A DNA stretch of 63,575 nt, counting the filler, from Collodictyon triciliatum (Eukaryota): the NCBI GenBank assembly GCA_043381765.1. It is 11 parts of 11 records of this genome, joined end to end, with 100 filler letters (N's around TTAATTAATTAA, not from the genome) between each part and the next. Parts side by side here need not be neighbours in the genome. Positions count along the whole stretch, not along the records: positions 31,799 to 38,049 come from JBHJMP010004602.1; 10 more parts are not named here. One strand, 5' to 3'. Both the position numbers and the translations under genes were made by a program. Below, one piece after another: positions 6,259 to 61,305 of this stretch; within the stretch, counting starts at the first letter, position 1, and each line of letters opens with the position of its first letter. Under the pieces are notes generated by a model, which searched no databases, was not told the origin of the DNA, and was given only the letters and a program-made list of their open reading frames with translations.

Positions 6259-6358
6259 NNNNNNNNNNNNNNNNNNNNNNNNNNNNNNNNNNNNNNNNNN
6301 NNTTAATTAATTAANNNNNNNNNNNNNNNNNNNNNNNNNNNNNNNNNNNNNNNNNNNN
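6259..6358. other. Artificial contig linker (N-run + TTAATTAATTAA + N-run); also at 12615-12714, 18970-19069, 25328-25427, 31699-31798, 38050-38149, 44364-44463, 50714-50813, 54585-54684, 60933-61032
   Basis: The same 100-bp spacer with stops in all six frames recurs ten times. The segments between spacers are mostly about 6.25 kb, as expected for size-sorted contigs. Confidence 0.97.
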
Positions 6359-10642: not shown

Positions 10643-11743
10643 TCAGATCACAGCGATGGAGAGGACTGCGCTGGAGTGGCCGGTCATGCTGAGCAGCGGC
10701 GAGCCCTTGGTGTCGTGGAGGCGGATGGAGCGGTCGTCGGAGCCGGACGCGATGGCGATGGAGTTGTTGTGGTGGTACCAGGCGAGGACATTGACATCGT
10801 CCTGGTGCGAGGTGATGGTCTTGAGGACGTTGGCGGAGCGGCGGTCCCAGATGCGGATGGTGTCGTCGTCGGAGGCGGAGACAACGAGGTTTGTGAGGTC
10901 TGTGGTTTCCAGGGTGGGCGGGACCGGGGACGAGTCGAAAGCGCGCACGAGGGCGTCGGAGCCCGCGAGAAGGTAGTTGACGTTGCTGGTGTGTGCGCGC
11001 CAAAGGCCGGCCGACGAGGCTGTGCGCCGGTCCCAGAGGCGGATGTGGTGGTCACACGCCCCGGAGTAGACGATGTTGGTGTCTATCTGCGTGGGCGTGG
11101 CGCAGCGCACCTGGCTCGTGTGCCCCTGCAAAACCTGCGTGCACGCAAACGTCTCCACGTCCCACACGCGCACGGTGTTGTCGTTCGACCCGGACACAAA
11201 CAGCGACTCGGTGATGGGCATCGTGAAGCACGTAAACTCCGTGTGGCCGGACAGAGAGCGCAGCTCCCGCAGCGGGCTGATGTCGTAGACGTCGATGGCC
11301 CGCTTCTGGTACGTGGCCTTCAGCAGGAGCCCCACCCCGCCCCACGCCTCGTTGGGGCTCTGCAGCCCGATTCGCCGGTTGGGCAGCGGCATGTAGGACA
11401 GGCAGTGCAGATAGCAGCCGGACGCAGCCACGTTCTGGATGCTCTGGAACTTGGAGCCGGCATCCTCTTTGTTGCCCGCCCCCGTGTTCTTGCCGGTGCT
11501 TTCTGGCGGCGCGGAGTACAGGCGCAGGGTCGAGTCGTCCGAGGCCGATGCAAAGACGTACTGGTGCTGGCCTTTGCCCTGGCTGGACTCGATTCTGCCC
11601 CATGCGCGGTAAGGAATCGAGCAGATTCCGTAGACTGTGGACGTGTGCAGCGATAGGGTCTGCACGCACCGTTGGGAGTCTGGGAGCGTCGGGTTCCAGA
11701 TCTTGACGTTGTTGTCCCGGCCACCAGAGACCAGCCAGTTTTT
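10643..11743 (-). CDS. WD40-repeat protein, long GC-rich terminal exon (upstream exons uncertain or truncated)
   Basis: Repeated GH...SxSxDxxIxxWD motifs, for example LSGHT...VSGSNDNTVRVWD and SASDDDTIRIWD. Acceptor AG lies before KNWLVSGGRDNNVKIW. Confidence 0.9.
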   Translation of the reverse strand, partial: KNWLVSGGRDNNVKIWNPTLPDSQRCVQTLSLHTSTVYGICSIPYRAWGRIESSQGKGQHQYVFASASDDSTLRLYSAPPESTGKNTGAGNKEDAGSKFQSIQNVAASGCYLHCLSYMPLPNRRIGLQSPNEAWGGVGLLLKATYQKRAIDVYDISPLRELRSLSGHTEFTCFTMPITESLFVSGSNDNTVRVWDVETFACTQVLQGHTSQVRCATPTQIDTNIVYSGACDHHIRLWDRRTASSAGLWRAHTSNVNYLLAGSDALVRAFDSSPVPPTLETTDLTNLVVSASDDDTIRIWDRRSANVLKTITSHQDDVNVLAWYHHNNSIAIASGSDDRSIRLHDTKGSPLLSMTGHSSAVLSIAVI

Positions 11744-12467
11744 CTTTTGGGGTTAAGAGTGTGCCTTATGTTAGCTTTTCTGAAGGGAGAGAAAAAGGGT
11801 GCGACCCTGGCTGGTTTAAGCATCATATACGATTAATGAAGCAGCAATAAAAAAAATATAAAAAAAAAGGAAAAAATAATCGAACGAAATAGATTCTACG
11901 ATAATACTCAGGCTCTATTCTATCTATTTGTTTCTTTGTTCTCTTGATTGATTGGTTGTATGTATGTTTGGGGGGGGGGGGGGGGTTTCTGAGTGCAGTC
12001 GCAGGTGGATAGAAAATCAAGACATCATACCGATAATTTTTTTTTGTATGTATTGGATAGAAATTAAGTACATGGGAAGGAATAACAACGTAAACTTACT
12101 CTGCGGACTGAGCAGTAATTGGCTCGAATATTCGACTATAAGCAGAAGATATTGTATGCTCTTAGAATAAAATAAATCATTCTGTGAAATGGTGCTATCG
12201 TGGTAGTGGGTAGTGATATGCTGAATGAGTACAGTATATATATTTTTTAGAAAAAAATTGTAATGGGTTACACGATGGAATTGAAACATACTGCTTTTGT
12301 TTTCTCCTCATCAATAAATATCTCCATCTACGTATATATATATGTGTGTGAATGCAAAAACACAGATAAGATAACAAAGAAATGAGACAAGAGTCATCCA
12401 TTTTAGTCGATATGAAGTCGAAAAAAACTGACAGAAAATTTTAAAATACGTTAAACATACTAGGTCA

Positions 12468-12524
<57 letters not shown>

Positions 12525-12714
12525 CAGTTTCCTACCTCTTTCTGGAGCGCCTGACGGTCCGATTGGGCTGGTAGGAATTCCCTGTATTTTTTTTTTTTTT
12601 TTTTTTTTTTCTCTNNNNNNNNNNNNNNNNNNNNNNNNNNNNNNNNNNNNNNNNNNNNTTAATTAATTAANNNNNNNNNNNNNNNNNNNNNNNNNNNNNN
12701 NNNNNNNNNNNNNN

Positions 12715-18969: not shown

Positions 18970-19295
18970 NNNNNNNNNNNNNNNNNNNNNNNNNNNNNNN
19001 NNNNNNNNNNNNNTTAATTAATTAANNNNNNNNNNNNNNNNNNNNNNNNNNNNNNNNNNNNNNNNNNNNCTCTTTATCTCTTTATCTCTTTATCTCTTTA
19101 TCTCTTTATCTCTTTATCTCTTTATCTCTTTATCTCTTTATCTCTTTATCTCTTTATCTCTTTATCTGTTGAATACTTGAATGTTTGAACATTTATATCA
19201 TATATCGATCACGCTTCGATTTACTTTCTTTTTTTCCGTTTCTTTTCTTAATTCTACCATCCTCGCTTGTCCATTATATCCTTTTTTTTGCGTAG

Positions 19296-21479
19296 CGTGG
19301 CGCATACTTTCGAGGAATGGAAGTCACTTGGATGCAATTGAAGCGGGATGTTCTGCGTGCGAGGAACTTCAATGCGATTTTACCGTGGGTTTTGGTGGAA
19401 GGTATTTTTTTTTATAAAAAGAGTCGAAGGAGTTTCATTTCTTATTATTGACGAGCATTGATTTCTGCTCAACAAACAACCATATTAAGTCCAAATGAGC
19501 GAGGTGAAACGACATTAGATGCCATGATAATGGACAGGTTGCATTTTTGTTCTCGAAACTCATCCAAAGAACCCATCTTTAATCATTCCATCATTTTCAT
19601 TTGAAATGTGCGGTTATATGATCAATAGGGAATATATTATCTTCTTTTTGCTTTCATAATATTTTTTTATTTTGTGGCCAATTCATAAATCCACATTATA
19701 TGTTTGTATACTGAAGCATTTTTTCTCTCTCTTTTTGATTTGCTGGGAAAAAAAGTGAGGTTCATGATGTCGGTGCAGTTGCGGTGATGAAGAGAGTGAA
19801 ATCTGCCATATCGGTTGCTCGGAAAGTACTGGAAAACACAGCCCACACATTGTTGGTCGGAGAGGATGCCACGCAATTTGCTCTAAACATGGGCTTTAAA
19901 GAAGAGAGTCTGTCAACAGACGAGTCCAGGTCCGATATTTTCTTTATATATTTACTGTCTTTTCTTTTATTATGTACGACTGTTTTTTTTTCCGGATTTT
20001 TTACATGAATAGTTATAGACACATTTGCCATTTCAATTCATTGTATAAGAAAAAAAAAAGAGGAACCAAGTATAAACAATTAGTAAATAAACACAAGAAA
20101 GCGTCATCAAGATTGGCTCGCAAACTCGTGCCAACCAAACTTTTGGCGGAATGTTCGACCCGATCCAACCCAAAGCTGTGGCCCTTACTCTCCAATATCG
20201 TCCGAATCACCTGTCAAGTCCAGCGACCTGAGTCATTACATCGACAGGGTAAAATAAGAGAAATTGATAAGGAGAAGAAATAAGAGATACCACATATAAT
20301 GGGCGAAAAAAAAATCAAAGTGAAATAATTAAGAGAATTATGATTTTGAATCGAATAAAGGAAAAAGAAATAATAATGGTAATAGTAATGGTATCTAACG
20401 ATCACTTATCGATTGCGTATGGAAAATAGTACAACCATGACACCATTGGAATGGTTGCTATTGATACTCATGGGCGATTGGCTGCAGGCACTTCGACAAA
20501 CGGGCTCTCATTCAGAATCCCTGGCCGTGTTGGTGATTCGCCCATCACAGGTGCAGGTGCATATGCCGAGAAAGGAATTGGCGGAGCAGCAGGAACCGGT
20601 GACGGTGATGTTCTCGCACGCTTTCTACCAAGGTTTCTTTATCTGATTTAACTGTCTCCTCCATACAACCATGAACAGCTGAGAATATGCCAATCAAAGA
20701 AAAAAAAAGACATAATCTTTACAGAAAACGAAGTGGATATATGCGAAATGAATTTATGATGGGTATTCAGATAAATGAGACACAAAGAAAAGATGAATGT
20801 TAAAATAAAAAATTAAAATACTATACGATATGCTTTCTTGTATGTGCCTGTGTTTGATTTTTTTTAAAAAAAGAAAAGAAAAAAATGAGTAAATAATTAA
20901 GTCACAATTTTAATATAGTTTTCAGGTTGTACGCAACATGGCCGCAGGAATGAGCCCGAAAGAGGTATTTGTGCTTTGCTATCATACTTTTTTTTTTTTT
21001 GGTTCGTTGTCTGTCATGTATTAAAATCAAACAAGAAACCCTCTCATAATTAATTCGAGCTTGCTTTCGATACGCCTGACTTGAATCATTACAAAGGCGG
21101 CAGAGGATGCGCTTCGAAGAATCCTTCGCTTCTACCCAAACTTTTCTGGGGGTTTGGTCGCCCTCAACGCGAAAGGAGAACACGGTACATCCTCGAAGCT
21201 TGCACCCACCAAGAAAAAAAAAAGCATCTCTTTATAATTAATATTATGCGGAATCTCTCGTGCAAGTCGCGGTGATTTAACAGTCGAATGAAATGTGTCA
21301 TTATTCGGCTTTGTTCATCATGGCATTTTTTTTTTTATTCTAGCGACTTCTTTATAATCAACGTATCTTAAAATATCCGAATAGGAGGCGCCGGCCATGG
21401 TTTCAGCTTCAGCTATTCTGTGCAGAACGCAGCAAGTGGTGATGCTATTGTGATTCCAGTGACACCCATTTCGCTTTGA
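19296..21479 (+). CDS. AGA: N(4)-(beta-N-acetylglucosaminyl)-L-asparaginase (glycosylasparaginase), 5'-truncated
   Basis: [34 protein letters not shown], autoprocessing site HDTIGM, GTSTNG and [12 protein letters not shown]. All introns are GT-AG. Confidence 0.95.
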
Positions 21480-23762: not shown

Positions 23763-23834
23763 TCCGTTATGGTGTAGTCGGTAGCACGTATGGCTCTCAC
23801 CCATACAACCCGGGTTCGATTCCCGGTAACGGAA
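23763..23834 (+). tRNA. tRNA-Glu (anticodon CTC)
   Basis: Acceptor stem TCCGTTA/TAACGGA, anticodon arm TATGG-CTCTCAC-CCATA, T-arm CCGGGTTCGATTCCCGG, and a downstream TTTT Pol III terminator. Confidence 0.95.
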
Positions 23835-25327: not shown

Positions 25328-25427
25328 NNNNNNNNNNNNNNNNNNNNNNNNNNNNNNNNNNNNNNNNNNNNTTAATTAATTAANNNNNNNNNNNNNNNNN
25401 NNNNNNNNNNNNNNNNNNNNNNNNNNN

Positions 25428-25902: not shown

Positions 25903-28900
25903 ACACATTCATATAGATATTGAATATATTTAAACACATAATTCAAACAGCCTAGTATACATTATACTTCATAAATTAACTGACAAATACACGGGGATTT
26001 TAGTTCGACACATTCCCCACAATCATCTGTACAATAACACATATCGCGACCCTCAATATTTCTGGAAATCAGGTTACAAAATTACACAACACATATTTTC
26101 AAAACAAAAAAAACTGATGAATGAACAATAGTTCAAACTATATTAATCAAATACCCTCTTAAACTCACCCATCGTACAAATCCAGATTTCATACATCCCA
26201 GATGTCATAGCAAACCTTGCAAATATTCAAAAACTGGACATATCCAACAACAAGGTCATATCTCTTCCGTTTTCCGTTTATTTGTTTATTTTTTTCCCAT
26301 TTTTTGGTTCAGTTTTATGGCCGTATTTCGCAAAAAAAAAAAAAAAAATAACAATATCATTATCAGATCGAAAAGCTACCCCAAATCATCGCCAAGCTTA
26401 AAGGCCTTCGAGGTGGACTGAATATCCAGGGAAATCAAATTAAAAATATCCCAGAAAACGTCATTAGAAATGGGTATGAGACTATCTTCGATTTCCTATC
26501 CAACTCCATGAATGGTGTTGTAAAATGGACCCAAGGAAGACTTCTGCTACTTGGTGAAGGAAACGTAGGGAAGACAACACTCATCAAATCAATCACACAA
26601 AATCACTGGTTTTTCAAGAATATGACAGACCAGCAAAGGATTGCAACTGATGGTATTGCCCACGTTGATATCGATGAGTCGATGATGGGTGGACTATTCA
26701 AGACAAAGATTTCCGTACAAATCTGGGATTTTGGTGGACAAGAGGAGTTCCAAGTAACACATCCATTCTTTTTGTCATCGGGCGCCCTCGTTTTAATCCT
26801 GTACAGACTCGACCAAGGCAAGGAGAAGAACAATCTCAGCCGCTGGGTCAAAATGCTCGATGACTTTGCACCTGGCTCAAAAATCATAATTGCTGGGACT
26901 CGTCAAGATTGCGAAAATCAAACTTATATTCAAGAGATGCAAAAAGAAATAGAACGTATCAAAAAAGAAAATGAGCGGAAACTGGATGAAAAAGCTCGCC
27001 ACATCTTCATCAGTACAGAGTTGAAAGTAAGCAACAAGAGAGGAACAAAAATATCATATTTGAAGGAAGAAGTATATAAAGGAATGATGACACTTGATAA
27101 CATGAACAAGGAAGTTCCAAAATCATACATTGGGCTGAAAGACTATCTGATTTCAAAAGGTCAAATATCGAAGTACGAACGAATCCAAAACACTTACGAT
27201 TTTGCCAAGAAGCAGCTGGGTATGGATAGAAATGAATGCGAAAGTGCTCTCAAATTCCTCCACGACCTTGGCTCGGTCGTTTGGTATTCATCACTTGAAC
27301 ATATCAAAGACATTATATTTTTAGACCCGCTCTTTCTCATTAATATATTCCGTTGTGTCTTCAGCTTCAAAGGTATCGGGAAGGACACAAATGGTATCAT
27401 TTTGTTGGGCAAGCTAAAAGACCAAATAAAACACGAATTGAAAATAGAACTAGATGAACATGTGTTCAATACAATTCTTCGAATCTTTGACCATTTCGGC
27501 CTTGGGATTCAATTCAACAAAGAATGCATCGCCTTTCCCTCACTGATGGAAGATTGCCAAAATCTCAAAGCATTATGGAATGAAAAACCAGAGTCAAACT
27601 GCATCGCTGAGACCTCTGTAGAGATAATTACCAATGGTGGAGTCCAGCTCTCTGACAAAAGCAACGTCGTCATACGGGCGCTTCGTTTGACAAAAGGGGC
27701 ACAAGCTGGAGTTCAGTATGACGACCAGTTTTTCAGAGATGTCGCATTCATACATCTGAATGCTTCGTACAAAACAGGAACGGATGAAATTCAACTGCTT
27801 CCTGGAGACGGTTTGATTATTTTGTATCAAATCCACCAGAAGAGCATTTCAGTCAAGATTAGAAAATACGAAAATGTGGTTCACGATGATGGCGATAGAA
27901 TCGTCAGGATTTTCGACATTCTTTGCACCTTCATCAAACAAATATCATCGATTCGACCAAATTTTGTGGAAGCATATCAATTTGAATGCCCTGAATGCCA
28001 ACGTCGTGGATTAGACGGTTATATTCAAACATCAGCAAAGATAAATGACTCAGAATTGAAAAAATGTACGAAGAGCCATCAATTGGAAGCGAGTACAGTG
28101 AAGCAAGGGCGCGTCTATCTGGAACAAGGTTTATTATAATCAATACATTCAAATATATTTTAATTTTCAACTTAATGATAATTTGATTATATGTTATCGA
28201 AAGCTTATAAATAATTTTTTTTAAAAAAAAGGAATCTCAAGGAGATTTGCCTCTGTGGTGAGAGCGAAAAAGACGAAGAAGTTGCAATCTGCTGAAGCAG
28301 TTCTTGAGCCGGATTCAATCGACCGGGAATTAAAAGACGAATGGATTCATGAAAAAATAGAACTGTCAGGTTATCTCGCAAAGGGGGCATATGGGCGAGT
28401 TTACACAACAACATTCAAAGGAAAAAGTGCTGTGGTGAAAATCCAAACTATGCAGAAGAACAAAGAGCAGACCTTCAGCGAGGTGATTCAATCGCTCATT
28501 TTTGAAAGCAAGTATCTGCATGAATGCAAGGAATGCGAAAACATTGTCAAATTGTTTGGTGTGTATCGTAAAGATGACGACTTTTTCATGATTATGGAGA
28601 ATGCAGGAATTTCGTTGAAAGCGATGTTGGAGAAGAAAAATATCAAGCCAACATTGCCTCAAGTCATTTCTTACACAATGCAACTTTGCAAGGGTCTCAT
28701 TTTCATGCATTCTAAAAATCTATATCACGAAGATTTGAAGGCCGATAACGTTATGATTGTGGGTGAAACAGTAAAAATTGTGGATTTTGGGATAGTGAGC
28801 CATCGCGACATAGAAAAGGTTGGTTCAAACTTACCGACGAGATTTGGTGAGAACAAGCAAGGCGGAACGGCTAATTGGCAAGCACCGGAAATCCATGAAG

Positions 28901-30678
28901 TCTCCTGTGAACCGTTTTATAATGATAATCCAAAAATGTATGGTGATGATGAAGTAAACATTGGCCATCGTGGAGAACCAAGTAATGTGTATGCTTTAGG
29001 AATGCTCGTTTGGTACATGTTCTCTGGTATCGAGCCGTTCCAGAATGAAACACAAACACAAAGTTTCATTATCAGGGGATTACGACTTGAAATACCGAAA
29101 GAAGCCACTCGGGAACTTAACCATCTCATCAAAACAAGTTGGAGGCAAAACTACAAGCTCCGACCTTCTCTGAATCAAGTTTCTGCATACCTGGATGAAT
29201 TGAAATCAGGCGAACAAAGGCTTTCTCAAAAGATGATGAGCGATTTGCTTCCAATTAAATACACTCCTTTGGCTGATATGTACCAGGGTGAATTTGTGGA
29301 GTGGCTTCGAGAGTATGGCTTTTTAAAACTAAGCGATATAATTTCAAATCAAAGCTGGGGAAGATTCCAAGAAATTCAAGACAAACTGGATGAAAGGATG
29401 ATGGTTGATATGTATCACATATCGCCGGATGAAATTTCTGCATTTGTTGAACTGTCGAAAGAGGAAGGCACTGGTAGCGATTCCCAAGCTCCAAAGAAAA
29501 AAGTTGAAGAATTATTTTACAGCCAATTGGTGACTCATCTCCAGAAAAAGAAAGACGAATTGTCAGAAAGACTGCTTGGGAAAGTGAAAGCTCTGAGGCT
29601 TGATGGAAAAACAATATCCAAGCTTGACCAGCCTGATGTCCACGCGATCCATTCGCTTTCTGAGCAAGAACTCTCGTTTGTGTCCCAATTCATAAACGAC
29701 CACCTACATCCAAATGAGATTGAGTCTCCTAAACATCCATTAAGCTCCGGTACCCTTCAAGATTTGGAAGAAATTCAATATATGAATGTGCGGTACATCC
29801 CTTACAATCATGGTATCCAACACGCAACCTCGCTGTGGATGGGCGATATGAAGCTCTCCCAGATTCCTAATTCGCTCAAGCATGTAGTCGGGTTAAAGAA
29901 ACTCTACCTCCATTCAAACCTAGTAATATTTACTTAATATCGATGAATAAATAAAATAAAAAAGCCACCAATACATTTAATTATTAACCATATTGTAACC
30001 CACCTCCTTTTTACAGCTTGTATATTTCCCGATGTCATGCTTCGCCCTTACGAACCTAGAGTATCTGGACTTATCAAAAAATAAGGTTTTCTGCTTGTGT
30101 TTTTTTTTTCTCCTTTACCAATTTTTAAATATACATATATACTAGTATATAATTTCATACCTGCATTTGAATCAACTTCATTCATAACTCCATTCTGCTC
30201 ATTTACTTTGATATACAGATATCATCAGTACCTGCTCAAATATCACACCTGACGGTTTTAACTCGCCTTGATGTCTCTCAAAATCAGTTGTCATCACTAC
30301 CTTCAGAAATATCATGCTTGAATGGTCTTATTCGCCTCGATGTCTTTCATAATCAGTTGATGTCACTGCCACAAGGATTATCGAGCTTAGCGTGCCTTGT
30401 ACAGTTGGATATCCGTGATAATTCGGTTTGTTAAATGTATAAATGTCGAAAAGTCAGGCCACTATTTTGAACTCATAATTATATTTCCATTCCTACATAT
30501 TGATGAGCTTCCTGCCGGAATTACTGCTCTGACTGCTCTCAGTCGCTTGTGCATCCGCAACAAAGAAGGAAAATCGAGCATCAAGAAGGCGCCTCCCGGC
30601 ATCACACTTCTGCCTTGTTGGAACGAGCAGAGCAATCCAGATTATGAAATAATTCGTAAACTGGTGCTTTATGACCAC
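25499..30678 (+). CDS. Roco protein: LRR-Roc-COR-kinase-(SAM-like helical region)-LRR; 5'-truncated, 3' end uncertain
   Basis: 69-nt LRR exons at 25499-25567, 25658-25726, 25830-25898, 26004-26072 and 26186-26254. Roc motifs GEGNVGKT, ATDGI and WDFGGQEEF. COR region with CPEC...C..H. A phase-1 intron (28129-28231) joins the kinase (KGAYG, HEDLKADN, DFG, APE). C-terminal LRR exons at 30017-30085, 30219-30425 and 30499-30678. Confidence 0.9.
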
Positions 30679-31798
30679 GTAAGAAATCTATGTTTGTTAT
30701 TCATTCACATGCTGCTCATATATAAGATAAATGCATTCGTATGTTAGTGTTTCTTTTTCTTTCTTCTTTTTTGGTTTGTTTTGTTTAAAAATAAAAGAAA
30801 TCTCAATTACTTATTTTATCAAACGACCAGCAGTAACCAAGAACTGGATTTTTTTCTGTATGAAGCCGGTTAAAGTGGTAAGGTGCAAGCTGGTATTAAA
30901 GTGTACAATATATCAAAATAGCTTTGTTTTTTTCGCTACTTCTTGAGTGTTGATGGTTGGAATATAGGTCATCAAAAAATCGGCAGGCAAATGCAGCATC
31001 TTTTTTGCTCCAACACCCGGCGATTTATTTTTACTACCTGCCAGCCAGCCAGCCAAGCGTTTCACAACCTGCTCACCTTTTTCTCCATCTTGACTCCCTT
31101 TTCACCCCATTTCACCCTTTCTTTCTCGGGTTTTTTCAGCACAGCTTTTCCCGATATCACAACCAGCAATCCACAAGCACCACACCCACACCAATGAGTC
31201 AGAATAAAGATGATAAAAAAAAAGCATGAGTAAGGTCAGCTCCAATATAAAATAATCATGTGGATACCAGACAGGAAAATGAGAGATAAAGAGAGGAGAA
31301 AGTAAGTCACGTGAAGACCTGGTGATTCCCTTGATTGTAATCCGCGATGCTCAATTAGTGATGCCTCAGTTATACGAGACATATACAAATTGCAACATTC
31401 GTCTGTCCATGGTCCTTTAAGGTTTTTCGATTGAGTGGGCTGTGTATCTGTGCGCAAGGTGATGCAAGATTCTGTATTAAAATTTTAAAAAAAGAAATAG
31501 GAAGAAATGGAAGTTTATCTTGCGATCACTTTTATTTTTTGCTTCTCATTAAATTTATCATGAGGTGAACAACATCTATTGAATTGTTTGTCTAAAGCGC
31601 AGTGATACATACATACATACATACATACATACATACATACATACATACATACATACATACATACATACATACATACATACATACATACATACATACATNN
31701 NNNNNNNNNNNNNNNNNNNNNNNNNNNNNNNNNNNNNNNNNNTTAATTAATTAANNNNNNNNNNNNNNNNNNNNNNNNNNNNNNNNNNNNNNNNNNNN

Positions 31799-31889
<91 letters not shown>

Positions 31890-31964
31890 TTGCTTTTTGT
31901 TATTTTTGTTGTTATTGTTGTTGTTCATCTTGAATAAATTACTAAATTGACTTAAAAAAAAAAG

Positions 31965-33150
31965 GTTGTGTGGCCTGGATTTCCAGACAGACTACCTGCA
32001 AACACTCGGGAGCGAGCTTTATGTTTGCTCAGAAACCGTCCAGACGTTTGTTTCATGCCTCACAGACACACTTGACTCTTTTTTCTTCTTTTTCTCTTGC
32101 GGCATTGAACACCCGATCTTATGCTGGTCATGCATGAAATTAAACTCTTCACTAGTCTAGAATTTTGTTAGATAACCTATTCTGATTTTTCACTCTGTTG
32201 TAAAACTTTTTTCTCAACACAACACATTTCGTGCGAGTACTGAACCAAGCACAATTTTGAGTTCAATTAATGTTGCATTTATCGGTAGGTCACGAGGAAA
32301 AGAAGGAGCCACTTTCAAGTTCTGGAGCTGCGGGGGGCATATGAGATACCGACCCTTACTTGGTCCTCTCTTCAAGGAAGCTCAGGTTCTCTCTCTTCCT
32401 TTTTTTTTTTTTTATATCCTCTTCACCACTTATTCACACAGGTTCATTTCTTAGTCCCCTTCTTTACAAATTTGTTCCAATCGTATTGGTGACATGTTGT
32501 TTTTGTTTGCGAAGTAATACCTTTTTTAACTCCACAAGTAATTTTGAAACATATTTTGTTATTTAAAACAATTAAATCTTGTGGGATTTATCTTAAGGGT
32601 GCCATAATTGTCTATGATGCCTCAAGCGAGGATTCATTTACTGATATTGCATACTGGAGAAATGAGATTCTAAGGTTTGGTGTTTTCGCATAATTTGGAC
32701 GATTTCCATGCCAAAAAAAAAAAAAAAAAACAGCCAAAATCATCGTTAATAGTAGTAATAAAATTGTATGAAAAGTATTTTAGATATATCGATTTGAGAA
32801 GCAAAAAAGGTAAACCCGTCTCCATCGATCAAAATAGGTTAAATGGAGGCATTCCTTACATGATTATAGGAAATAAGTATGATTTACCTACTCAGGCCGT
32901 CAGTGACCAAGATGGTCAAGTGCAGGTACAAATGAAAAATTCTCCAGCTCTTCTCCCTCCATAATGAAGTCTTTATTGTCATTTTGACCAACTCAGTTTT
33001 CACTTGCTGCCCTCGTTTCCACTCGATATTGTTTCTCAGGCTCAAAAATGGGCTGTTCCGTTTACGCACACCTCTGCCAAAAGCCTAACAGACATCTCTC
33101 CACTCCTGCAGCGTGTTTATGACACAGTTCTTCTTTGTGTTAAAGATTAA
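31965..33150 (+). CDS. Divergent Rab-like small GTPase (5'-truncated)
   Basis: FQTDYLQTLGSE (G2), FWSCGGHMRY (degenerate G3), GAIIVYD, IGNKYDL (G4) and TSAK (G5). TAA stop at 33148-33150. Confidence 0.8.
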
Positions 33151-34324
33151 TGTTATTTTTGTTGTTGATTTATTTGTTTCGCAAATGAAACGACACGTAC
33201 TATACAAATTCATACCTTCATCAAACTTGTGGGCAATACTCTCAGAAAACATTATGTGGAAAAGGCGTGAGGAATGAGAGATACAGACGAAATGGATTAC
33301 ATTTTGTTGGAATTGCCTGTTGAAACCACACTTCGGGATGAGATAATCGCGTATCTATTTTTGTTTGCCATATAAGAGTCCATATTTTCCCAGAAAATCG
33401 AAGTCTCAAACGATGATAAAAGAAAATCGAAGCGGTGTATTTGCAAAATTTACTAAGCACAGAAGTTTGCATCAGAGCGACTTTGTGGCTCTTTTTCTTT
33501 TTCTTTTTCTTTTTCTTTTTCTTTTTCTTTTTCTTTTTCTTTTTCTTTTTCTTTTTCTTTTTCTTTTTCTTTTTCTTTTTCTTTTTCTTTTTTTCTTTTT
33601 TTCTTTTTTTCTTTTTCTTTCTTTTTCTTTTTCTTTTCTTTTTCTTTTTCTTTTTTATCTTTATTAAAGTTGAAATAGGTGCGTCCAAGATATAGCAATC
33701 TCGGTTTTGCAAGCTTTCATCCCAAAATGTATCCAAATCATTTGAATCCAAATCCAGGTCAGTCTCGGGCACAATAATTCCAGATATAGTCAAATTCACT
33801 GAATATTTATAGCCTGCTTGTGGTTGGACAAAAAAAACCAGAGCAGCCACGAATCCAAGCAGCAGCGGTCGAATGTGTGGGAAAAGTCGCCCAGGCAGGC
33901 AGTAAAGAATGCGAGGCGGAAGGGAAAAGCAAATGGAAGGGTGCAAGGAACTATGCAGCAAACTTGAGACCGTGTTTGGAGCAGATGATCACTGGCATAT
34001 GTATACACGAAGAAAAAAAGAAAGACGAGAGATGAGAAAGAACATTGCACTGTCCATCTATCTTCGATCTGCCTTGTTTCCTTTGCAGACAAGACTTGCT
34101 GTTGAATCGATCAGATCTTTTCATATTCCAAAGGAAAGGAAGAAGGAAAAGAAGAAGAAGAAAAAAAAGCGAGTCTCTGGATACGATAAGGCGTTCACCT
34201 TTTTGTGTGACGGGGAATGTGGCGTTAGTGAACTAGTGTGTGGAAGCAGTCTAGTGAATTGTATTTGTGGTGGTTTCGAAACGCACAGAGATAACTGCTC
34301 AAGTCCTATTCCTCAGTATACGCG

Positions 34325-37300
34325 ATGGACTTCCGCTTCAAAACCCTCGAGCCTTTGGGCGAGTTAACCGACCTTGTCAACAAGGAGTTTAAAGAGTGCT
34401 TTTCGGCCTCTTTCCCAGAGGTTGCCTTCCCCTCTGTCACAAAGGTGAGGCCTCTACTTTGCTTCACTCATTTTATTTCATAGACAGCTGATATTTTATT
34501 TTGGATAGTTTGATTGCTTGCTGTTGTCTGATATACTCTGGCATCTTATTATCTCGCCTCTCGACAATGCAGTGCCGGGAAATGGACAAAGGTGACTTTT
34601 CCATGATGCTGAATGCTGCCGCTGGCAAACTTAAGAAGGATCCGTCCGAGTTTTCAAAGACTCTTGCTCAAGACTTCAACGTCTTCCTGGTAACGAATTC
34701 TTTCATTTTCCAAGATATTGAGATTATAGCATGACTCTCTATTTTTTCTTCTGTCATGTTCGAAACTCTTCGAAAGTAAAGAAATGTTGGAAATGAAAAC
34801 TGGTTTACACAGAACGCAAAGGATCAAAGCAGTCGCATCGTCCAAAGAGTAGAGTCGGCAAAAGGATATCTCAACTTCTTTTTGAACCGTGCTCTTGTCT
34901 TCCGCATGGGGATTCAAGTAAAACTCTCACCAAAAGATTGTCTATGTGAATCAAGCTAAAGACTGCATTCTAGTTGGAAAGATGATCCACGACTGTATCT
35001 GACCGTCCGTTTCCCTCACATTTTCCTTGCCATCGCAGATGGTGCTCGATCTTGGACAGAAGTATGGGCACACAAAAGGGATGGCAGGAAAGAAAGTCAT
35101 TGTCGAGCACACATCCAGCAACCCAAATGCCCCACTCCACATCGGAAATCTCCGAAGCACACTTATTGGAGGCCATCTCTCCAAGCTCCTAGAAGTGAGA
35201 CTCGAAAACACGATTATCAGACTTTTTCAGTCGTCCAATTGACCGTTGCTGACTTCCTAATTTCTTTCTCCCATTAGGCTGTTGGATACGATGTGAAGGA
35301 ATTCTTTTTTGTGAATGACCTTGGCGCCCAGATTGGACTCACTGCCCTTGGATACAATAAGGTTCGATCTGAATTGTGAACGCAAATCACATCCGTGCAT
35401 CTCTATCTCTTTATCCCTTTCTCTTTTTTTCTCTTTTTTTCTCTTTTATTTCCTCAGGAAATAATTAATATACTAAACGGATGAAACTTCCGTCTCTGAA
35501 GGTCTATGAAAAGCTTACTCCTACGATGAAGATCGATCACTGGATCGGCTTCATGTATGCCATCATGAATACTTTCTCAGAGCTGCAAAAACTGAAGCAA
35601 AACATCGGTACTTTATTCGCAGGCTCTTAACCCAGCTTAAATAAAGGAATCTTTCGTCTTGGCATTATTGTCTAAGCAATCCACGACATTTCAAGGTCAC
35701 ATCGCCAAACTTGTCGCAGAGGGCAAGAATCCTTTGGAAGATCCATGCGCCGAAGGTGTGGACAAGGAAGGGGTTAGTCTTTATATGTTTTTATGCATAG
35801 TCCTGTATAGTAGGTCAGACGTCTAATAGGCACTCTGAAATGTAATATTTTTTTCTCTTGCTCTCATGCATTCTCTCCGATAAATCATAGCTGGCCGAGT
35901 ATGTGGACATTTTCCAAGATTTGCGCTCTCGTCAGCCCAAACTGTTTGACACGCTGCTCGATCTTTGCCTTTCCACCCCGAACATCCAACAGGAAGCTGC
36001 CGAGCTCAATCTCCGGTACGAAAAAAACGACCCAGGAGCAGTCAAGGTATTCCTTTTCTTTTTTTTTTTTTTGAAATATATTTGTATGAAAGATATGATG
36101 ACGAAATGCGATACTTCATACTTCCTTTCATAGAGTCAACTAACAACACTTGAAATTGTTGTTCAGATCTTCAGAAAAATGGTTACGGACTGTCTTGCAG
36201 GCGTGCAGGAGACTATGGATACTTACAATATTAAGCACCATCGCTTCGACTTCGAGTCTGAGCTTGGTTGGGAGGTATCAGTTTGCATATTCTCTATCGC
36301 CCTTGATTACTTTTTTTTTTTTTTCACTCCAACACTACGGCTATCTTCTTTTAGGGAAGTAATGATCGTGTACTCTCTTTCTTCCGTGACCAATCCCCCT
36401 ATTACGTGCCGCCAACACAATGCAACCAGGAAGGAAAACCTCAGGTCTAAAAAGGAACATGTGTAATTTCTACTATATACCAGAGAACAATGGATAAGCA
36501 TTTATCTTCGGTTTCCCTGTTTCATATGCCTTTGGCGACTAAACTTTGAATTAATGTTTTCTTTCCCTTTTAAAAATAAGGGTGGTCACTTGAATCTCTC
36601 AAAATTCTTGGAAGACTACAAATACCCCACTGGAAAGAAAGGATATCAGCAAAACTACCCACCTCTGTATGTCCTGCGGCCTGATGGTAGTACGCTCTAC
36701 ATTTTCCGTGATGTCGTATATTCTTTGAAGAAAGTTCGAGAGGCTGATTTGGTATGAATTGGATTATATGTATTTTGTTATAGCCTTATATTACTATGTT
36801 AAAATTTTAAAATATTTTTTATTTTGCCTTTCTCTTTCACCCTCAAGGTCTTGAATGTCATCTGTTCAGAGCAAAATCTCTCACAAGAAAAAGTGCAGTT
36901 AGCCCTTCAGCTCATCGACATGGAGAAAGGCAAAAGTTTGGTATGATTAGCGTCTTTTTCTCACACTCCGCTAAATCGAATACTCTGATATCACTACCAA
37001 TAAACCATTTGATTTTTTTTATCGCAGCAACATGTCAGCTATGAATTGGTGAAGCTATCTAGTGGACGCATGAGTGGACGACGTGGGCGATATGTCACTG
37101 CTGACGATCTCTATGAGTACGTTGGCCTCAAAAGAAAGAGAAATGGATGATGATAATAATAATATTAATCCCCTGCCTGTTTTCATTTTCTGTTTTCAAC
37201 GAAACAACATACGATGCACCAGTTTCAAAGCTTAATGCTTTCCTCTTAATAATCATTAGGGACTTGAAGGAAGTTCTGACAGAGCAAATGAAAAAAAGAA

Positions 37301-37844
37301 ACGAGACTTTGCCCGAAGAAGAGAGACAAAATGCGGAGCATCTGGAGCGCGTTACACACGAAGTATATCGGGAGTTGCTATCCCTACCTTTCATAATCCA
37401 CATATATCCCTTGTGATGCATCTTTCCAACTCTTGAACTGCTTATTGATTTTTAATCATGTCAGGTTGCCACAGCAGCGATGAAGTACGCCATTCTATCA
37501 TCAGGGCCACGCACGATGGTTCATGCTCAATTTGAATAGCAGACAGTCAATTATTACCCGCAGTGATTAAATACGATCTTATGTCGCAAAGACGACTTCC
37601 TCATTTTAACGCCTTCCTTCCTATTCGTAAGATAATTCTTGTATGAAGCCTTCAATTGTAACAATAGATATCGTTCGACGTGAATAAAGTCACCGACTTT
37701 GAGGATAGCAGTGCACCGTTCCTGCTTTACAACTCGAGCCGTCTCAACACTCTGCAGGCCAAATTTGCCACGAAGGCTCAAAGTGGCGAGCTGCGCGCTC
37801 TTCCGTCGTTCTCGGACATCAACACGTCTCTCCTCAACAACCAG
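34325..37844 (+). CDS. argS: Arginyl-tRNA synthetase, archaeal-like (many exons, 3'-truncated)
   Basis: VEHTSSNPNAPLHIGNLR (HIGH-like), VNDLGAQI, FDFESEL, LRPDGSTLYIFRD, RMSGRRG (KMSKS-like) and FEDSSAPFLLY. All traced introns are GT-AG and in phase. Confidence 0.93.
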
Positions 37845-37922
37845 GTATCTTTGAAATTTTAGGCAACTTCACTCTTCCTGTAAAGAGGATGTGCTGGTCG
37901 TTATGCATTTTTTTTTTCGTTC

Positions 37923-38027
<105 letters not shown>

Positions 38028-38149
38028 TTATTGTTGTTTTTATTGTTGTNNNNNNNNNNNNNNNNNNNNNNNNNNNNNNNNNNNNNNNNNNNNTTAATTA
38101 ATTAANNNNNNNNNNNNNNNNNNNNNNNNNNNNNNNNNNNNNNNNNNNN

Positions 38150-44141: not shown

Positions 44142-44463
44142 CTTCAACCAGAATGATACAAAACTTTATAAAATCTTTCATAATAAATTTTTAAAAAAAA
44201 AGTTGGTAGAAAATCAACTATCATTTGTCCTTTGATAATTGTTTCAGTTTACTGGAAACGTCATGACACATTTCGTTTGTATGTACAAAAAAAAAAAAAA
44301 AAAAAAGAAAAAAAAATTTTTTTTTATTATAATTTTTTTTTTTTTTTTTTTAACACACACAGANNNNNNNNNNNNNNNNNNNNNNNNNNNNNNNNNNNNN
44401 NNNNNNNTTAATTAATTAANNNNNNNNNNNNNNNNNNNNNNNNNNNNNNNNNNNNNNNNNNNN

Positions 44464-46676: not shown

Positions 46677-48050
46677 GTTGAGAATCATAAAGCAAGCTTA
46701 TAACATAATAAAAGGACATCCCCTTACAATTAGAGAGCGTCTTGATTTTATATTTTTGATTATTCGTAGTGATTAAGTTGCGGCAGATGTCTTTCAGCTC
46801 CTTCAGCCTTTGGGGATTCAGAAAAGTACCTTTCATGTTGTAGATAAAGGCCGACAGCATCACTCGATTCCACAACCTTACTTTCCCCACGTCCGAGAGA
46901 TGAAAGTTGCTCCACCCTGATATTTTCGACTTGATGTCTTCAACCAGGCTTGTCCATTTGCTATCCAATTGTGGACCGAAGATGATACCAAGATGCTTGA
47001 GTGGATGTGAGAGTGGCTTCCACACAATGTTTCCTGGAAACACAAGTCCGTCCTGAGAACCGAAAAGAATTCCATCTGTTTTTTCGTAGTTGATTTTCCC
47101 GCTGACAGCTCGTGTGTATTCCTGCATGCATTTGTTGGCGAGTGTGGCGCCTTCGTGAGACCGCAAGATGAACTCTGTGTCGTCTGCATATTGAAGTAGC
47201 AGTTGGTTGTGTACCTTGTTTTCGTTTCGGAAGTGGTTTGCAAGGCAAAGTCAGCGACAAAGTTGAAGAGCAGTGGTGCAAGTGGGCAGCCTTGATACAC
47301 CCCGCTCTGTCTTTGAATTGCATCCGTAGGTCCGTGTGCCGTGAGTGCCTTTCTGTTGCATTGTCGTGCAGTTTCTTGATAAGACCGGTCAATCCGGTAC
47401 AGAAGCCTCTTTTGTGTAGGATGGTTTCCAGTGCTTCGTGGTTCACATAGTCGTATGCTTTCTCCAGGTCGTAGAAAATCATAGCACGGTGTACCCCGCT
47501 TACTTGATATTCCATGTACTCCTTATTGTCAATCCAGATGTTTGTGTCGATGTTCCTTCCGTTCATGAAACTAATCTGCTCTTTGGATATGAGTTTGTAA
47601 GCGATGGGTGATATGCGATTTCTGAGTAGCGTCGTAAATATCTTATAGTCGTTATTCAACAGTGATATTGGCCGCCAGTCTGCAAGGTTGCTCGAGTCTC
47701 CTTTCTTTGGTATCAGCCGCACCGTGGCCTCTGTAAATCCTTGCAGTAGGTCGCCACCAGACATGATTCCATTCAGAAAAGCCACCAAGGGTGCCTTGAC
47801 CTCATTAAAGAAAGCAGAGTATATTCCGTTTGGCAACCTATCTGAACCTGGCGCCTTTCCGTTGTGTAGCGACTTGACCGCTTTCCACAATTCGCCTGCA
47901 TCTATTGGTGCTATCATGCTGGCTGCTTACGAGTATGAAGTCTTAGAGCAGTTTGTGGTGATAAGCTCGAGAGTAGCAGCATCATAGTCTTATCTTGACC
48001 ACATATTTGAGAAGAAGTCGTGGGTGTTCTTTTTGTTGTTACGAGGTTAT
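46677..48050 (-). mobile_element. Non-LTR retrotransposon (L1/Tx1-like) reverse transcriptase, frameshifted; 3' part lies in the gap
   Basis: KAPGSD, LIPKKGD...WRPISLLNNDYKI, DLEKAYD, QGCPLAPLLF and YADD (47179-47190) fall in three different frames. Confidence 0.92.
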
Positions 48051-50549: not shown

Positions 50550-50847
50550 CCAAGGAAAGGGGCAGTGGAGTCGGTTTGGGCGGATTCCGAGGCTGTGAGG
50601 GCGAGTGTACTGAGTTGTGTCTTTTGTGTCTTTTGTGTCTTTTGTGTCTTTTGTGTCTTTTGTGTCTTTTGTGTCTTTTGTGTCTTTTGTGTCTTTTGTG
50701 TCTTTTGTGTCTTNNNNNNNNNNNNNNNNNNNNNNNNNNNNNNNNNNNNNNNNNNNNTTAATTAATTAANNNNNNNNNNNNNNNNNNNNNNNNNNNNNNN
50801 NNNNNNNNNNNNNAAAAGGAACAAAAAAAAAAAAAAAAAAAAAAAAA

Positions 50848-54572: not shown

Positions 54573-54684
54573 CCAATAATTATTNNNNNNNNNNNNNNNN
54601 NNNNNNNNNNNNNNNNNNNNNNNNNNNNTTAATTAATTAANNNNNNNNNNNNNNNNNNNNNNNNNNNNNNNNNNNNNNNNNNNN

Positions 54685-60713: not shown

Positions 60714-61305
60714 CTGTAAATTATATTTTTGATAGAAGAGACTCTAGTATAGCATAATTCATTGTTGTTGGTGATGTATTCATAAACTAATTATTCAGAA
60801 TAATAAAAGTTGATTTGGCTCGCAATCTGTATTTTTAAATTCAACAAACTTTGTCTTCTAATCCACAATCCAAAAATCGTAAACAAAGGGCTGCATGATA
60901 TACAAAGTTCATGAATGCGGTTCATATGCCCCNNNNNNNNNNNNNNNNNNNNNNNNNNNNNNNNNNNNNNNNNNNNTTAATTAATTAANNNNNNNNNNNN
61001 NNNNNNNNNNNNNNNNNNNNNNNNNNNNNNNNAAAAAAAACAAACAAAAAACAAACAAAAAACAAACAAAAAAAACAAACAAAAAAAAAACAAACAAAAA
61101 AAACAAACAAAAAAAACAAACAAAAAAACAAACAAAAAAACAAACAAAAACCAAAAACAAACAAACAAACCAAATGAATACGATGAAGTAATGAATGTTA
61201 AATATCCTCGTTTATGTCATTCTCATTTTTTTCTTGCAAAACAGTACAGCCATCCACAATTTCTTCTGTAATAACAAAAGCATGAATACTTTACTTTATT
61301 TCCAG

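Follow-up and report, generated by a model that had tools for sequence, protein, structure and literature searches.

A spliced nuclear arginyl-tRNA synthetase gene with Asgard affinity in the protist Collodictyon triciliatum

The window analysed here is a stretch of 63,575 nucleotides (nt) of DNA from Collodictyon triciliatum, a freshwater microbial eukaryote (assembly GCA_043381765.1). It is a chain of contigs of ~ 2.5–6.3 kb each, linked by N44-TTAATTAATTAA-N44 spacers, and not one stretch of chromosome, so pieces adjacent in the window may lie apart in the genome. One piece, JBHJMP010004602.1, carries a gene for arginyl-tRNA synthetase (ArgRS) on its plus strand. The gene is expressed as spliced RNA, and its product is very probably a functional ArgRS with affinity to the enzymes of Asgard archaea. 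The whole of the evidence is, in our judgement, best explained by a working nuclear ArgRS gene that is related to the Asgard enzymes and was inherited from the host, an account we regard as probable and hold with moderate confidence.

The exon model was obtained by tblastn of a 699-residue, transcript-derived protein (P0001) on the window, followed by refinement of the junctions. P0001 itself was found by a search with the exon that encodes EHTSSNP...HIGNLR, over which the two are 92% identical. The splice-aware model consists of 16 exons and exactly 15 introns of 80–149 nt, all of the GT-AG type (Table 1), which bears out the "about 15 introns" of the preliminary description of this locus. 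The peptides quoted there were all recovered on the plus strand in the places where it had read them, both in stop-to-stop frames and by tblastn. The spliced product is 602 residues long, without a stop or a gap, and 519 of the 602 residues are those of P0001 residues 1–602 (86% identity). It breaks off after residue 602 because the piece ends in a (TTG)n repeat. A pseudogene was ruled out by the open frame, the spliced RNA and the 86% identity to the transcript of a relative.

The RNA evidence came from contigs of four runs (X1–X4), of which two are on record as freshwater metatranscriptomes and the other two are RNA by guess only. In the RNA-type contigs, 14 of the 15 introns were seen as GT..AG joints of the predicted size. 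For the intron at 36047–36166, which has a repeat nearby, adjoining record coordinates were found across the gap in X1 record 2 and X4 record 11. The RNA contigs differed from the window by four bases only. Past position 37845, the X1 and X2 contigs held 255 nt that are absent from the window, the start of which was read as DEWELFMTYV and corresponds to P0001 from residue 603, showing that the organism has the whole gene. We also observed a summed contig depth of ~ 1171 (X1) and ~ 776 (X2) at 35348–35469 in intron 5, against ~ 5–20 elsewhere in the gene, which points to a short repeated or low-complexity element common in those runs.

The 5′ end of the mRNA carries a spliced leader of ~ 36 nt, AACCGATCAAGTAGCTAACACTACCTAATCAAAGAG, which is trans-spliced 8 nt before the ATG. 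Upstream of 34315, contigs of X1, X2 and X4 held 17–25 nt foreign to the window. These letters had no match in the window with up to two mismatches, and no leader gene was found there. The genomic sequence at the junction reads pyrimidine run-AG|TATACGCG-ATG, i.e. a splice acceptor. A 20-mer of the leader occurred at 69 places in metagenome contigs, 65 of them at the extreme 5′ end of the contig. In these 65 contigs the 20-mer was preceded by at most 14 additional letters held in common and followed by AG and unrelated, mostly GC-rich sequence; the 69 places together had 65 distinct downstream 25-mers. Such a placement at contig ends with varied downstream sequence is the signature of a spliced leader, and its presence on many contigs shows that the lineage of this organism uses spliced-leader trans-splicing. 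A literature search for the leader sequence returned nothing relevant. At the other four places (L217, L241, L257 and L261, all in one assembly), the 20-mer stood in a differing conserved context, ..ATTT-20mer-TTCCATGATG.., which is not that of the leader. Trans-splicing at this position settles which ATG is the start codon and adds to the proof that the gene is nuclear and eukaryotic. Together with the 15 RNA-confirmed introns it rules out prokaryotic contamination, in agreement with the preliminary description, which had drawn that conclusion from the introns. The pre-mRNA loses at least 16 short GT-AG introns on its way to the mature message and gains the leader.

The enzyme was identified at several levels. 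Exon 4 alone matched Pfam PF00750 with E = 1.6e-08 (34.4 bits, cut-off 23.3), which excludes a chance match. With P0001 as an 86%-identical proxy for the full product, Pfam returned PF03485 at residues 17–103, PF00750 with 96.1 bits and PF05746 at residues 590–699. P0001 also scored 415.8 bits (curated cut-off 399) against the NCBIfam equivalog NF002446, the NCBIfam model that scores highest on the enzymes of TACK and Asgard archaea. The product would have the usual tripartite build, with a tRNA-binding domain at the N-terminus, a catalytic core of the Rossmann type and a helix bundle for anticodon binding and, as a class I ArgRS (EC 6.1.1.19), would make Arg-tRNA-Arg from arginine, ATP and tRNA. 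The AlphaFold model of P0001, based on an alignment of 53 sequences, had a mean predicted local distance difference test (pLDDT) score of 95.5 and a predicted template modelling (pTM) score of 0.92. Its 17 best matches in the PDB were all ArgRS, the first being that of Pyrococcus horikoshii (2zue), followed by the yeast enzyme (1bs2/1f7u). Residues 205–326 of the model form six predicted helices, an insert of ~ 120 residues in the catalytic core, confirming the helical insert that had been read from the sequence before.

The active site is conserved. In HMMER alignments, Glu137, Asn142, Tyr413 and Asp417 correspond to Glu148, Asn153, Tyr347 and Asp351 of the yeast enzyme, which we take, from its structure, to be the arginine-binding residues. 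All four are encoded in the window, in exons 4 and 11. Across the 53 sequences Glu137, Tyr413 and Asp417 are invariant and Asn142 is at least 90% conserved. RMSGRRG aligned with MSTRKG of yeast, and in this KMSKS-type loop Met476 and Ser477 are at least 90% conserved over the 53 sequences and Arg479 is invariant.

The gene is by no means peculiar to this genome, since it has many eukaryotic relatives. A full-length search with P0001 listed, among the best 120 of 204 matches, a eukaryotic set at 37–57% identity. The named members among the matches listed, at 37–52%, are Chloropicon primus, Mesostigma, Anaeramoeba ignava, A. flamelloides, Barthelona, Monocercomonoides exilis, Blattamonas nauphoetae, Eukaryota sp. 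TZLM3-RCL, an MMETSP strain and several EukProt transcriptomes. Below this set identity falls to ~ 31% or less, with archaeal sequences (Desulfurococcales, Heimdallarchaeaceae). Each of the 15 clade members that were aligned carries HxGNLR and two stretches that are absent from archaea. In total, the clade holds at least 54 eukaryotic sequences, spread patchily over green algae, several metamonad lineages and many other protists, and the picture of an isolated curiosity that the preliminary description conveyed has to be given up. In the ESM Atlas, the P0001 homologue P0043 scored equally against ArgRS clusters of fungi and of Thermoproteota and was uninformative.

The N-terminus of the product is acidic (MDFRFKTLEPLGELTDL) and aligns with the conserved N-domain from its first residues, with no presequence, which suggests that the enzyme is probably cytosolic. 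We considered whether it might instead be imported into a plastid or mitochondrion, with a separate canonical ArgRS serving the cytosol. Green algae do need ArgRS in three compartments. Nevertheless, import is improbable given such an N-terminus. Moreover, Monocercomonoides has no mitochondrion and the organelles of the other metamonad members have no genomes, so in these protists the cytosol would have to be its place of action.

The class I signature HIGH was not matched in the window, where the motif reads HIGN; His148...Asn151 aligns with His159...His162 of yeast. The preliminary description had called this an alteration of HIGH. The reading of the letters was right, but the change is not private to this gene. 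By a regular-expression count, from which 14 rows without a match were dropped, HxGN was present in 54 of 54 eukaryotic rows and in 40 of 41 rows of the Heimdall/Baldr-like Asgard groups (Heimdall A 11/11, Heimdall B 23/24, Baldr-like 6/6), compared with 2 of 105 elsewhere (other Asgard group 0/7, TACK-type 2/76, short-type 0/22). HIGN is thus a family variant and not a sign of decay, and its distribution marks it as inherited and links the eukaryotic clade with the Heimdall/Baldr-like enzymes. Loss of the second histidine could also indicate a paralogue that is no longer a synthetase and has taken on another role. This is hardly credible for a residue so uniformly present in the clade and its Asgard relatives, the more so as the fourth position of the motif varies widely (H, Q, S, T, A, G) in other archaeal ArgRS and as conservation extends to the arginine-binding residues and the MSGRR loop.

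Searches among prokaryotes pointed to archaea. A scan of GTDB species genomes, queried with a 12-sequence alignment, gave 597 confirmed relatives, the best 80 of which are all archaeal. P0001 alone as the query against prokaryotic genomes gave no loci. In the phylum-level scan of Asgard archaea, 192 of 201 genomes matched. A minority gave single full-length matches of 200–303 bits, and most gave weaker, split matches to an enzyme of ~ 640 residues. An HMMER scan of 1.84 billion representatives returned 394 matches at E ≤ 1e-30, the best prokaryotic one being P0184 from "Candidatus Asgardarchaeia archaeon" (317 bits, 36% identity). Among solved structures the best match by sequence was the Pyrococcus ArgRS (165 bits), against 128 bits for yeast, 83 for human and 70 for E. 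coli. These results, together with the NF002446 score, bear out the earlier assignment to an archaeal-type enzyme. Asgard genomes, judging by the main tree described below, hold at least four differing ArgRS types. One Thermoplasmatota metagenome-assembled genome (G005) has two ArgRS genes, one of the short type with 594 residues (L081) and one of the Bathyarchaeia-like insert type with 654 residues (L086), reflecting either transfer between archaea or a mixed bin.

A FastTree phylogeny of 197 sequences recovered the 54 eukaryotic rows as monophyletic, within an unresolved knot formed with three Asgard groups and the rest. The main tree was computed with IQ-TREE under LG+C20+F+G4 with posterior mean site frequencies (PMSF), on 75 rows (20 eukaryotic, 24 Asgard, 23 TACK-type and 8 short-type) and 638 columns. 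The other 122 rows, among them the long-branch P0153, P0172, P0173, P0170, P0145, L129, L053, L054 and L072, were omitted for computing time. Support is given as ultrafast bootstrap (UFBoot)/Shimodaira–Hasegawa-like approximate likelihood ratio test (SH-aLRT). The eukaryotes were monophyletic at 100/100 and grouped with 15 of the Asgard rows at 100/100; the same group minus the Baldr-like rows had 95/87, eukaryotes with Heimdall A 92/73, and a sister position of the TACK-type to eukaryotes plus Asgard 92/74. Those 15 Asgard rows comprise 3 Baldr-like ones, 9 of Heimdall B, with Ca. Heimdallarchaeum among them, and 3 of Heimdall A, with Heimdallarchaeota S012_26 among them. Of the remaining nine, four fell with the short type, four formed a separate group and one lay among Bathyarchaeia-like sequences. 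The same eukaryote+Asgard grouping was obtained with 38, 41 and 58 rows (SH-aLRT 99–100; the 58-row set by a quick tree only). In a second scan Heimdall A grew to ~ 13 members, one of them labelled Kariarchaeota, and Heimdall B includes Heimdallarchaeota AB_125; P0184 and P0188 were placed in the Baldr-like group. In a quick tree with 12 Heimdall A rows, Heimdall A, Heimdall B and the eukaryotes split three ways (SH-aLRT 92), within a clade that also holds the Baldr-like group (100). On removal of the long-branch Heimdall A, the eukaryotes joined Heimdall B and then the Baldr-like group.

Approximately unbiased (AU) tests were run in IQ-TREE on 38 rows and 642 columns, with p given under LG+F+G4 / LG+C20+F+G4. 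The values were 0.027 / 0.045 for eukaryotes with TACK, 0.016 / 0.071 for eukaryotes outside the whole TACK+Asgard type, 0.06 / 0.035 for eukaryotes with Heimdall B, 0.185 / 0.16 for the three Asgard groups monophyletic without eukaryotes, 0.376 / 0.363 for Heimdall A+B without eukaryotes, and 0.61 / 0.725 for eukaryotes with the Baldr-like group. As judged from these alignments, an Asgard affinity is favoured and a sister relationship to TACK is mildly rejected. The trees and the AU tests do not single out one Asgard group as the sister, nor do they separate a position of the eukaryotes within the Asgard groups from one beside them.

The preliminary description had filed the gene as resembling crenarchaeal (TACK-type) enzymes, in particular those of Sulfolobales, and had called for a maximum-likelihood phylogeny. 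That phylogeny, run here with TACK, Asgard and short-type sequences, placed the eukaryotic clade with the Heimdall/Baldr-like Asgard sequences and TACK outside them. EHTSxNP, the helical insert and (K/R)MSGRRG are indeed common with TACK enzymes, and by similarity the top two loci of the GTDB scan, one from Pyrodictiaceae (4e-94) and one from Baldrarchaeota (5e-94), are about equal; in bit score, too, Pyrodictiaceae and Desulfurococcales loci reach about the level of the Baldrarchaeota locus (306 against 305 bits). However, the same motifs and insert are equally present in Asgard sequences, TACK fell outside the eukaryote+Heimdall/Baldr group in every tree, and HxGN is rare in TACK-type rows. 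A crenarchaeal source is therefore very improbable. The earlier interpretation was partly supported, being right in kind (archaeal-type, with a retained host gene or an old transfer as the two possible histories) and wrong in address (Asgard, not Crenarchaeota).

The closest known enzymes compare as follows. The Heimdall/Baldr-like ArgRS (for example Ca. Baldrarchaeota L001, Heimdallarchaeota S012_26 L052, Ca. Heimdallarchaeum endolithica L025 and P0184) agree with the gene in their three-domain layout, in EHTSxNP and HxGN(L/F/I)R, in the helical insert that follows DxWIGxxYA and in the MSGRR loop. They differ in having no introns, 27–36% identity to P0001 and neither of the two stretches confined to the eukaryotes, one of which is QCN..GKPEGG ahead of the PxLYVLRPDG strand and the other ~ 11 residues, P..P.LPE(F/W), in the anticodon-binding domain. 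The TACK enzymes (Thermoproteota, Bathyarchaeia) have the insert-bearing architecture and the motifs and are the highest scorers on NF002446. In 74 of 76 of their rows the fourth position of HIGH is taken by H, Q, S, T, A or G, and in the trees TACK does not contain the eukaryotic clade. The P. horikoshii ArgRS, solved with tRNA-Arg, was the best structure by both sequence and fold (E 6.9e-34, TM-score 0.72/0.79) and has EHTSVNP. It differs in keeping HMGH, in its 22% identity and in leaving residues 240–400 of the query, the region of the helical insert, almost unaligned. Yeast ArgRS and human RARS1 (4q2t) have the same fold (TM-score 0.66–0.72) with the arginine-binding Glu, Asn, Tyr and Asp aligned. 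Yeast, however, has EFSSPN, HAGH and a shorter loop before MSTR, and in terms of scores only, the canonical enzymes lie below the 200–317 bits of the Asgard ones.

Woese and colleagues in 2000 and Wolf and colleagues in 1999 reportedly found eukaryotic ArgRS to be of bacterial affinity. In Igloi 2021 (PMC8318970), eukaryotic ArgRS are sorted by motif into two classes, "cytoplasmic" (GDYQ) and "mitochondrial" (MSTR and a five-residue deletion), Monocercomonoides is filed as "Mito" and an archaeal class does not enter the scheme. Igloi 2022 (PMC8975779) describes all examined algal enzymes as of the cytosolic type, and AARS Online (PMC11580382) treats ArgRS as a single family. Our literature search, with most subscription journals outside its reach and so without proof of absence, found no paper describing an archaeal- or Asgard-type eukaryotic ArgRS. 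Motif-based sorting appears to have assigned a wrong origin to the oxymonad enzyme at least, which is a warning for annotation.

How the gene reached eukaryotes is less certain than its affinity. We lean slightly towards vertical descent from the ArgRS of an Asgard-related host as the most likely history. The host ArgRS would have been present in the last common ancestor of eukaryotes (LECA) and then been replaced by bacterial-type ArgRS in most other lineages. Whether the copies in green algae, metamonads and other protists are survivors of that enzyme, carried in LECA beside a bacterial-type ArgRS, we consider evenly balanced. If they are, the "cytoplasmic" ArgRS of animals and plants, usually taken as the ancestral nuclear form, would be a replacement, and HxGN would be a catalytic-site state handed from Heimdall/Baldr-like archaea to eukaryotes.

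Several points weigh against such a history. Vertical descent requires many independent losses. In the gene tree, where support within the eukaryotic clade is modest, the three lineages of metamonads come out apart from one another, and the eukaryotic stem, at 0.93–1.1 changes per site, joins another long branch in some trees, making long-branch attraction possible. In the AU set, eukaryotes with the Baldr-like group gave the best tree under C20, equal to or better than eukaryotes with Heimdall A. Asgard monophyly without eukaryotes was not rejected, and the rejections of a TACK sister and of a position outside TACK+Asgard are weak. The constrained AU topologies were fast searches under LG+F+G4, and the trees span the eukaryotic clade, Asgard, TACK-type and short-type sequences, with canonical animal, plant and fungal ArgRS compared by PDB scores alone. 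We must also note that the final ~ 97 residues, most of the DALR anticodon-binding domain, and the remaining exons lie outside the window.

A later transfer would account for some of this. Here, a Heimdall/Baldr-like archaeon would have donated the gene to one eukaryote after LECA, and endosymbiotic or horizontal spread among eukaryotes would have followed. The patchy spread would be explained, with no named animal, fungus or land plant among the matches listed (best 120 of 204), as would the scattered metamonads; the AU tests, moreover, do not fix the attachment among the Asgard groups. We nevertheless consider this history unlikely, though a serious competitor. The eukaryotic clade is fully supported as monophyletic on a stem of ~ 1 change per site that is at least as long as the clade itself is deep, and green algae and metamonads, at a minimum, are represented among its named members. 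A sequence that groups with the oxymonads, which we presume from its accession prefix to be another member of Preaxostyla, would fit descent within that group. Finally, a pattern scan of viral contigs confirmed none of 59 pattern matches as a relative, so, within the limits of such a scan, nothing points to a giant virus as the carrier.

Vertical descent from the host would have consequences beyond this genome. A third, Asgard-affiliated class of eukaryotic ArgRS in several supergroups would show that the host ArgRS survived eukaryogenesis, and would be a further gene connecting eukaryotes with Heimdall-related archaea. The enzyme swaps would offer a test bed for the co-evolution of the synthetase and the identity rules of tRNA-Arg (position 20), and the conserved HxGN a natural experiment in which the HIGH motif of class I has been changed.

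Table 1. Positions of the ArgRS gene and of other features, counted along the window.
Feature	Position	Strand	Remarks
Contig piece with the ArgRS gene	31799–38049		JBHJMP010004602.1; starts in (ATT)n and ends in (TTG)n microsatellite; spacers on both sides
ArgRS gene, part in the window	34325–37844	+	16 exons, 15 introns
AG splice acceptor	34315–34316	+	behind a pyrimidine run; leader joined here, 8 nt before the ATG
Exon 1	34325–34444	+	ATG at 34325; residues 1–40; start of Arg_tRNA_synt_N domain; joint 34444/34573 in RNA contigs
Exon 2	34573–34689	+	model and RNA contigs
Exon 3	34813–34917	+	model and RNA contigs
Exon 4	35039–35194	+	EHTSSNP 35105–35125; HIGN 35138–35149 instead of HIGH; Glu137, Asn142
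Exon 5	35278–35361	+	FFVNDLGAQIG; model and RNA contigs
Exon 6	35502–35607	+	KIDHWIGFMYAIMN; predicted helical insert begins near 35532
Exon 7	35696–35772	+	predicted helical insert; model and RNA contigs
Exon 8	35891–36046	+	predicted helical insert; model and RNA contigs (X1 record 2, X4 record 11)
Exon 9	36167–36274	+	predicted helical insert ends near 36223; FDFESELGWE
Exon 10	36355–36444	+	QCN..GKPQ stretch, only in eukaryotic clade
Exon 11	36581–36751	+	PPLYVLRPDGSTLY; PPLYVLRPDGSTLYIFRD; Tyr413 at 36698–36700, Asp417 at 36710–36712
Exon 12	36848–36940	+	VLNVICSEQ; model and RNA contigs
Exon 13	37028–37116	+	RMSGRRG 37067–37087, the ArgRS form of the KMSKS loop
Exon 14	37260–37362	+	model and RNA contigs
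Exon 15	37465–37518	+	MKYAILS; model and RNA contigs
Exon 16	37668–37844	+	final coding segment of the window; runs to residue 602
Intron 16 start, then (TTG)n	37845–38049	+	GT at 37845–37846; repeat from ~ 37921 to contig end at 38049
Spacers, first five	6259–6358, 12615–12714, 18970–19069, 25328–25427, 31699–31798		N44-TTAATTAATTAA-N44
Spacers, last five	38050–38149, 44364–44463, 50714–50813, 54585–54684, 60933–61032		N44-TTAATTAATTAA-N44
ROCO-type gene	26352–30431	+	Pfam scan
ROCO-type gene, Roc GTPase and COR-A	26352–28136	+	
ROCO-type gene, protein kinase	28225–29934	+	
ROCO-type gene, leucine-rich repeats	30171–30431	+	
WD40 beta-propeller open frame	10646–11752	-	369 residues
RVT_1 reverse transcriptase open frame	46964–47926	-	adjoins a 970-N gap
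Asparaginase_2 family gene	within 19739–20648	+	two exons
tRNA-Glu(CTC) gene	23763–23834	+	

Other pieces of the window carry further features. Pfam scans of 187 of the 216 longer open frames listed showed no marker gene by which the organism could be placed. The ROCO-type gene is large and nearly intron-free. The WD40 open frame is likewise free of introns, has a local G+C content of 51% against a window average of ~ 37%, and may be a retrogene or of foreign source. The reverse transcriptase open frame probably belongs to a retroelement. An Asparaginase_2 family gene and a tRNA-Glu(CTC) gene were also observed.

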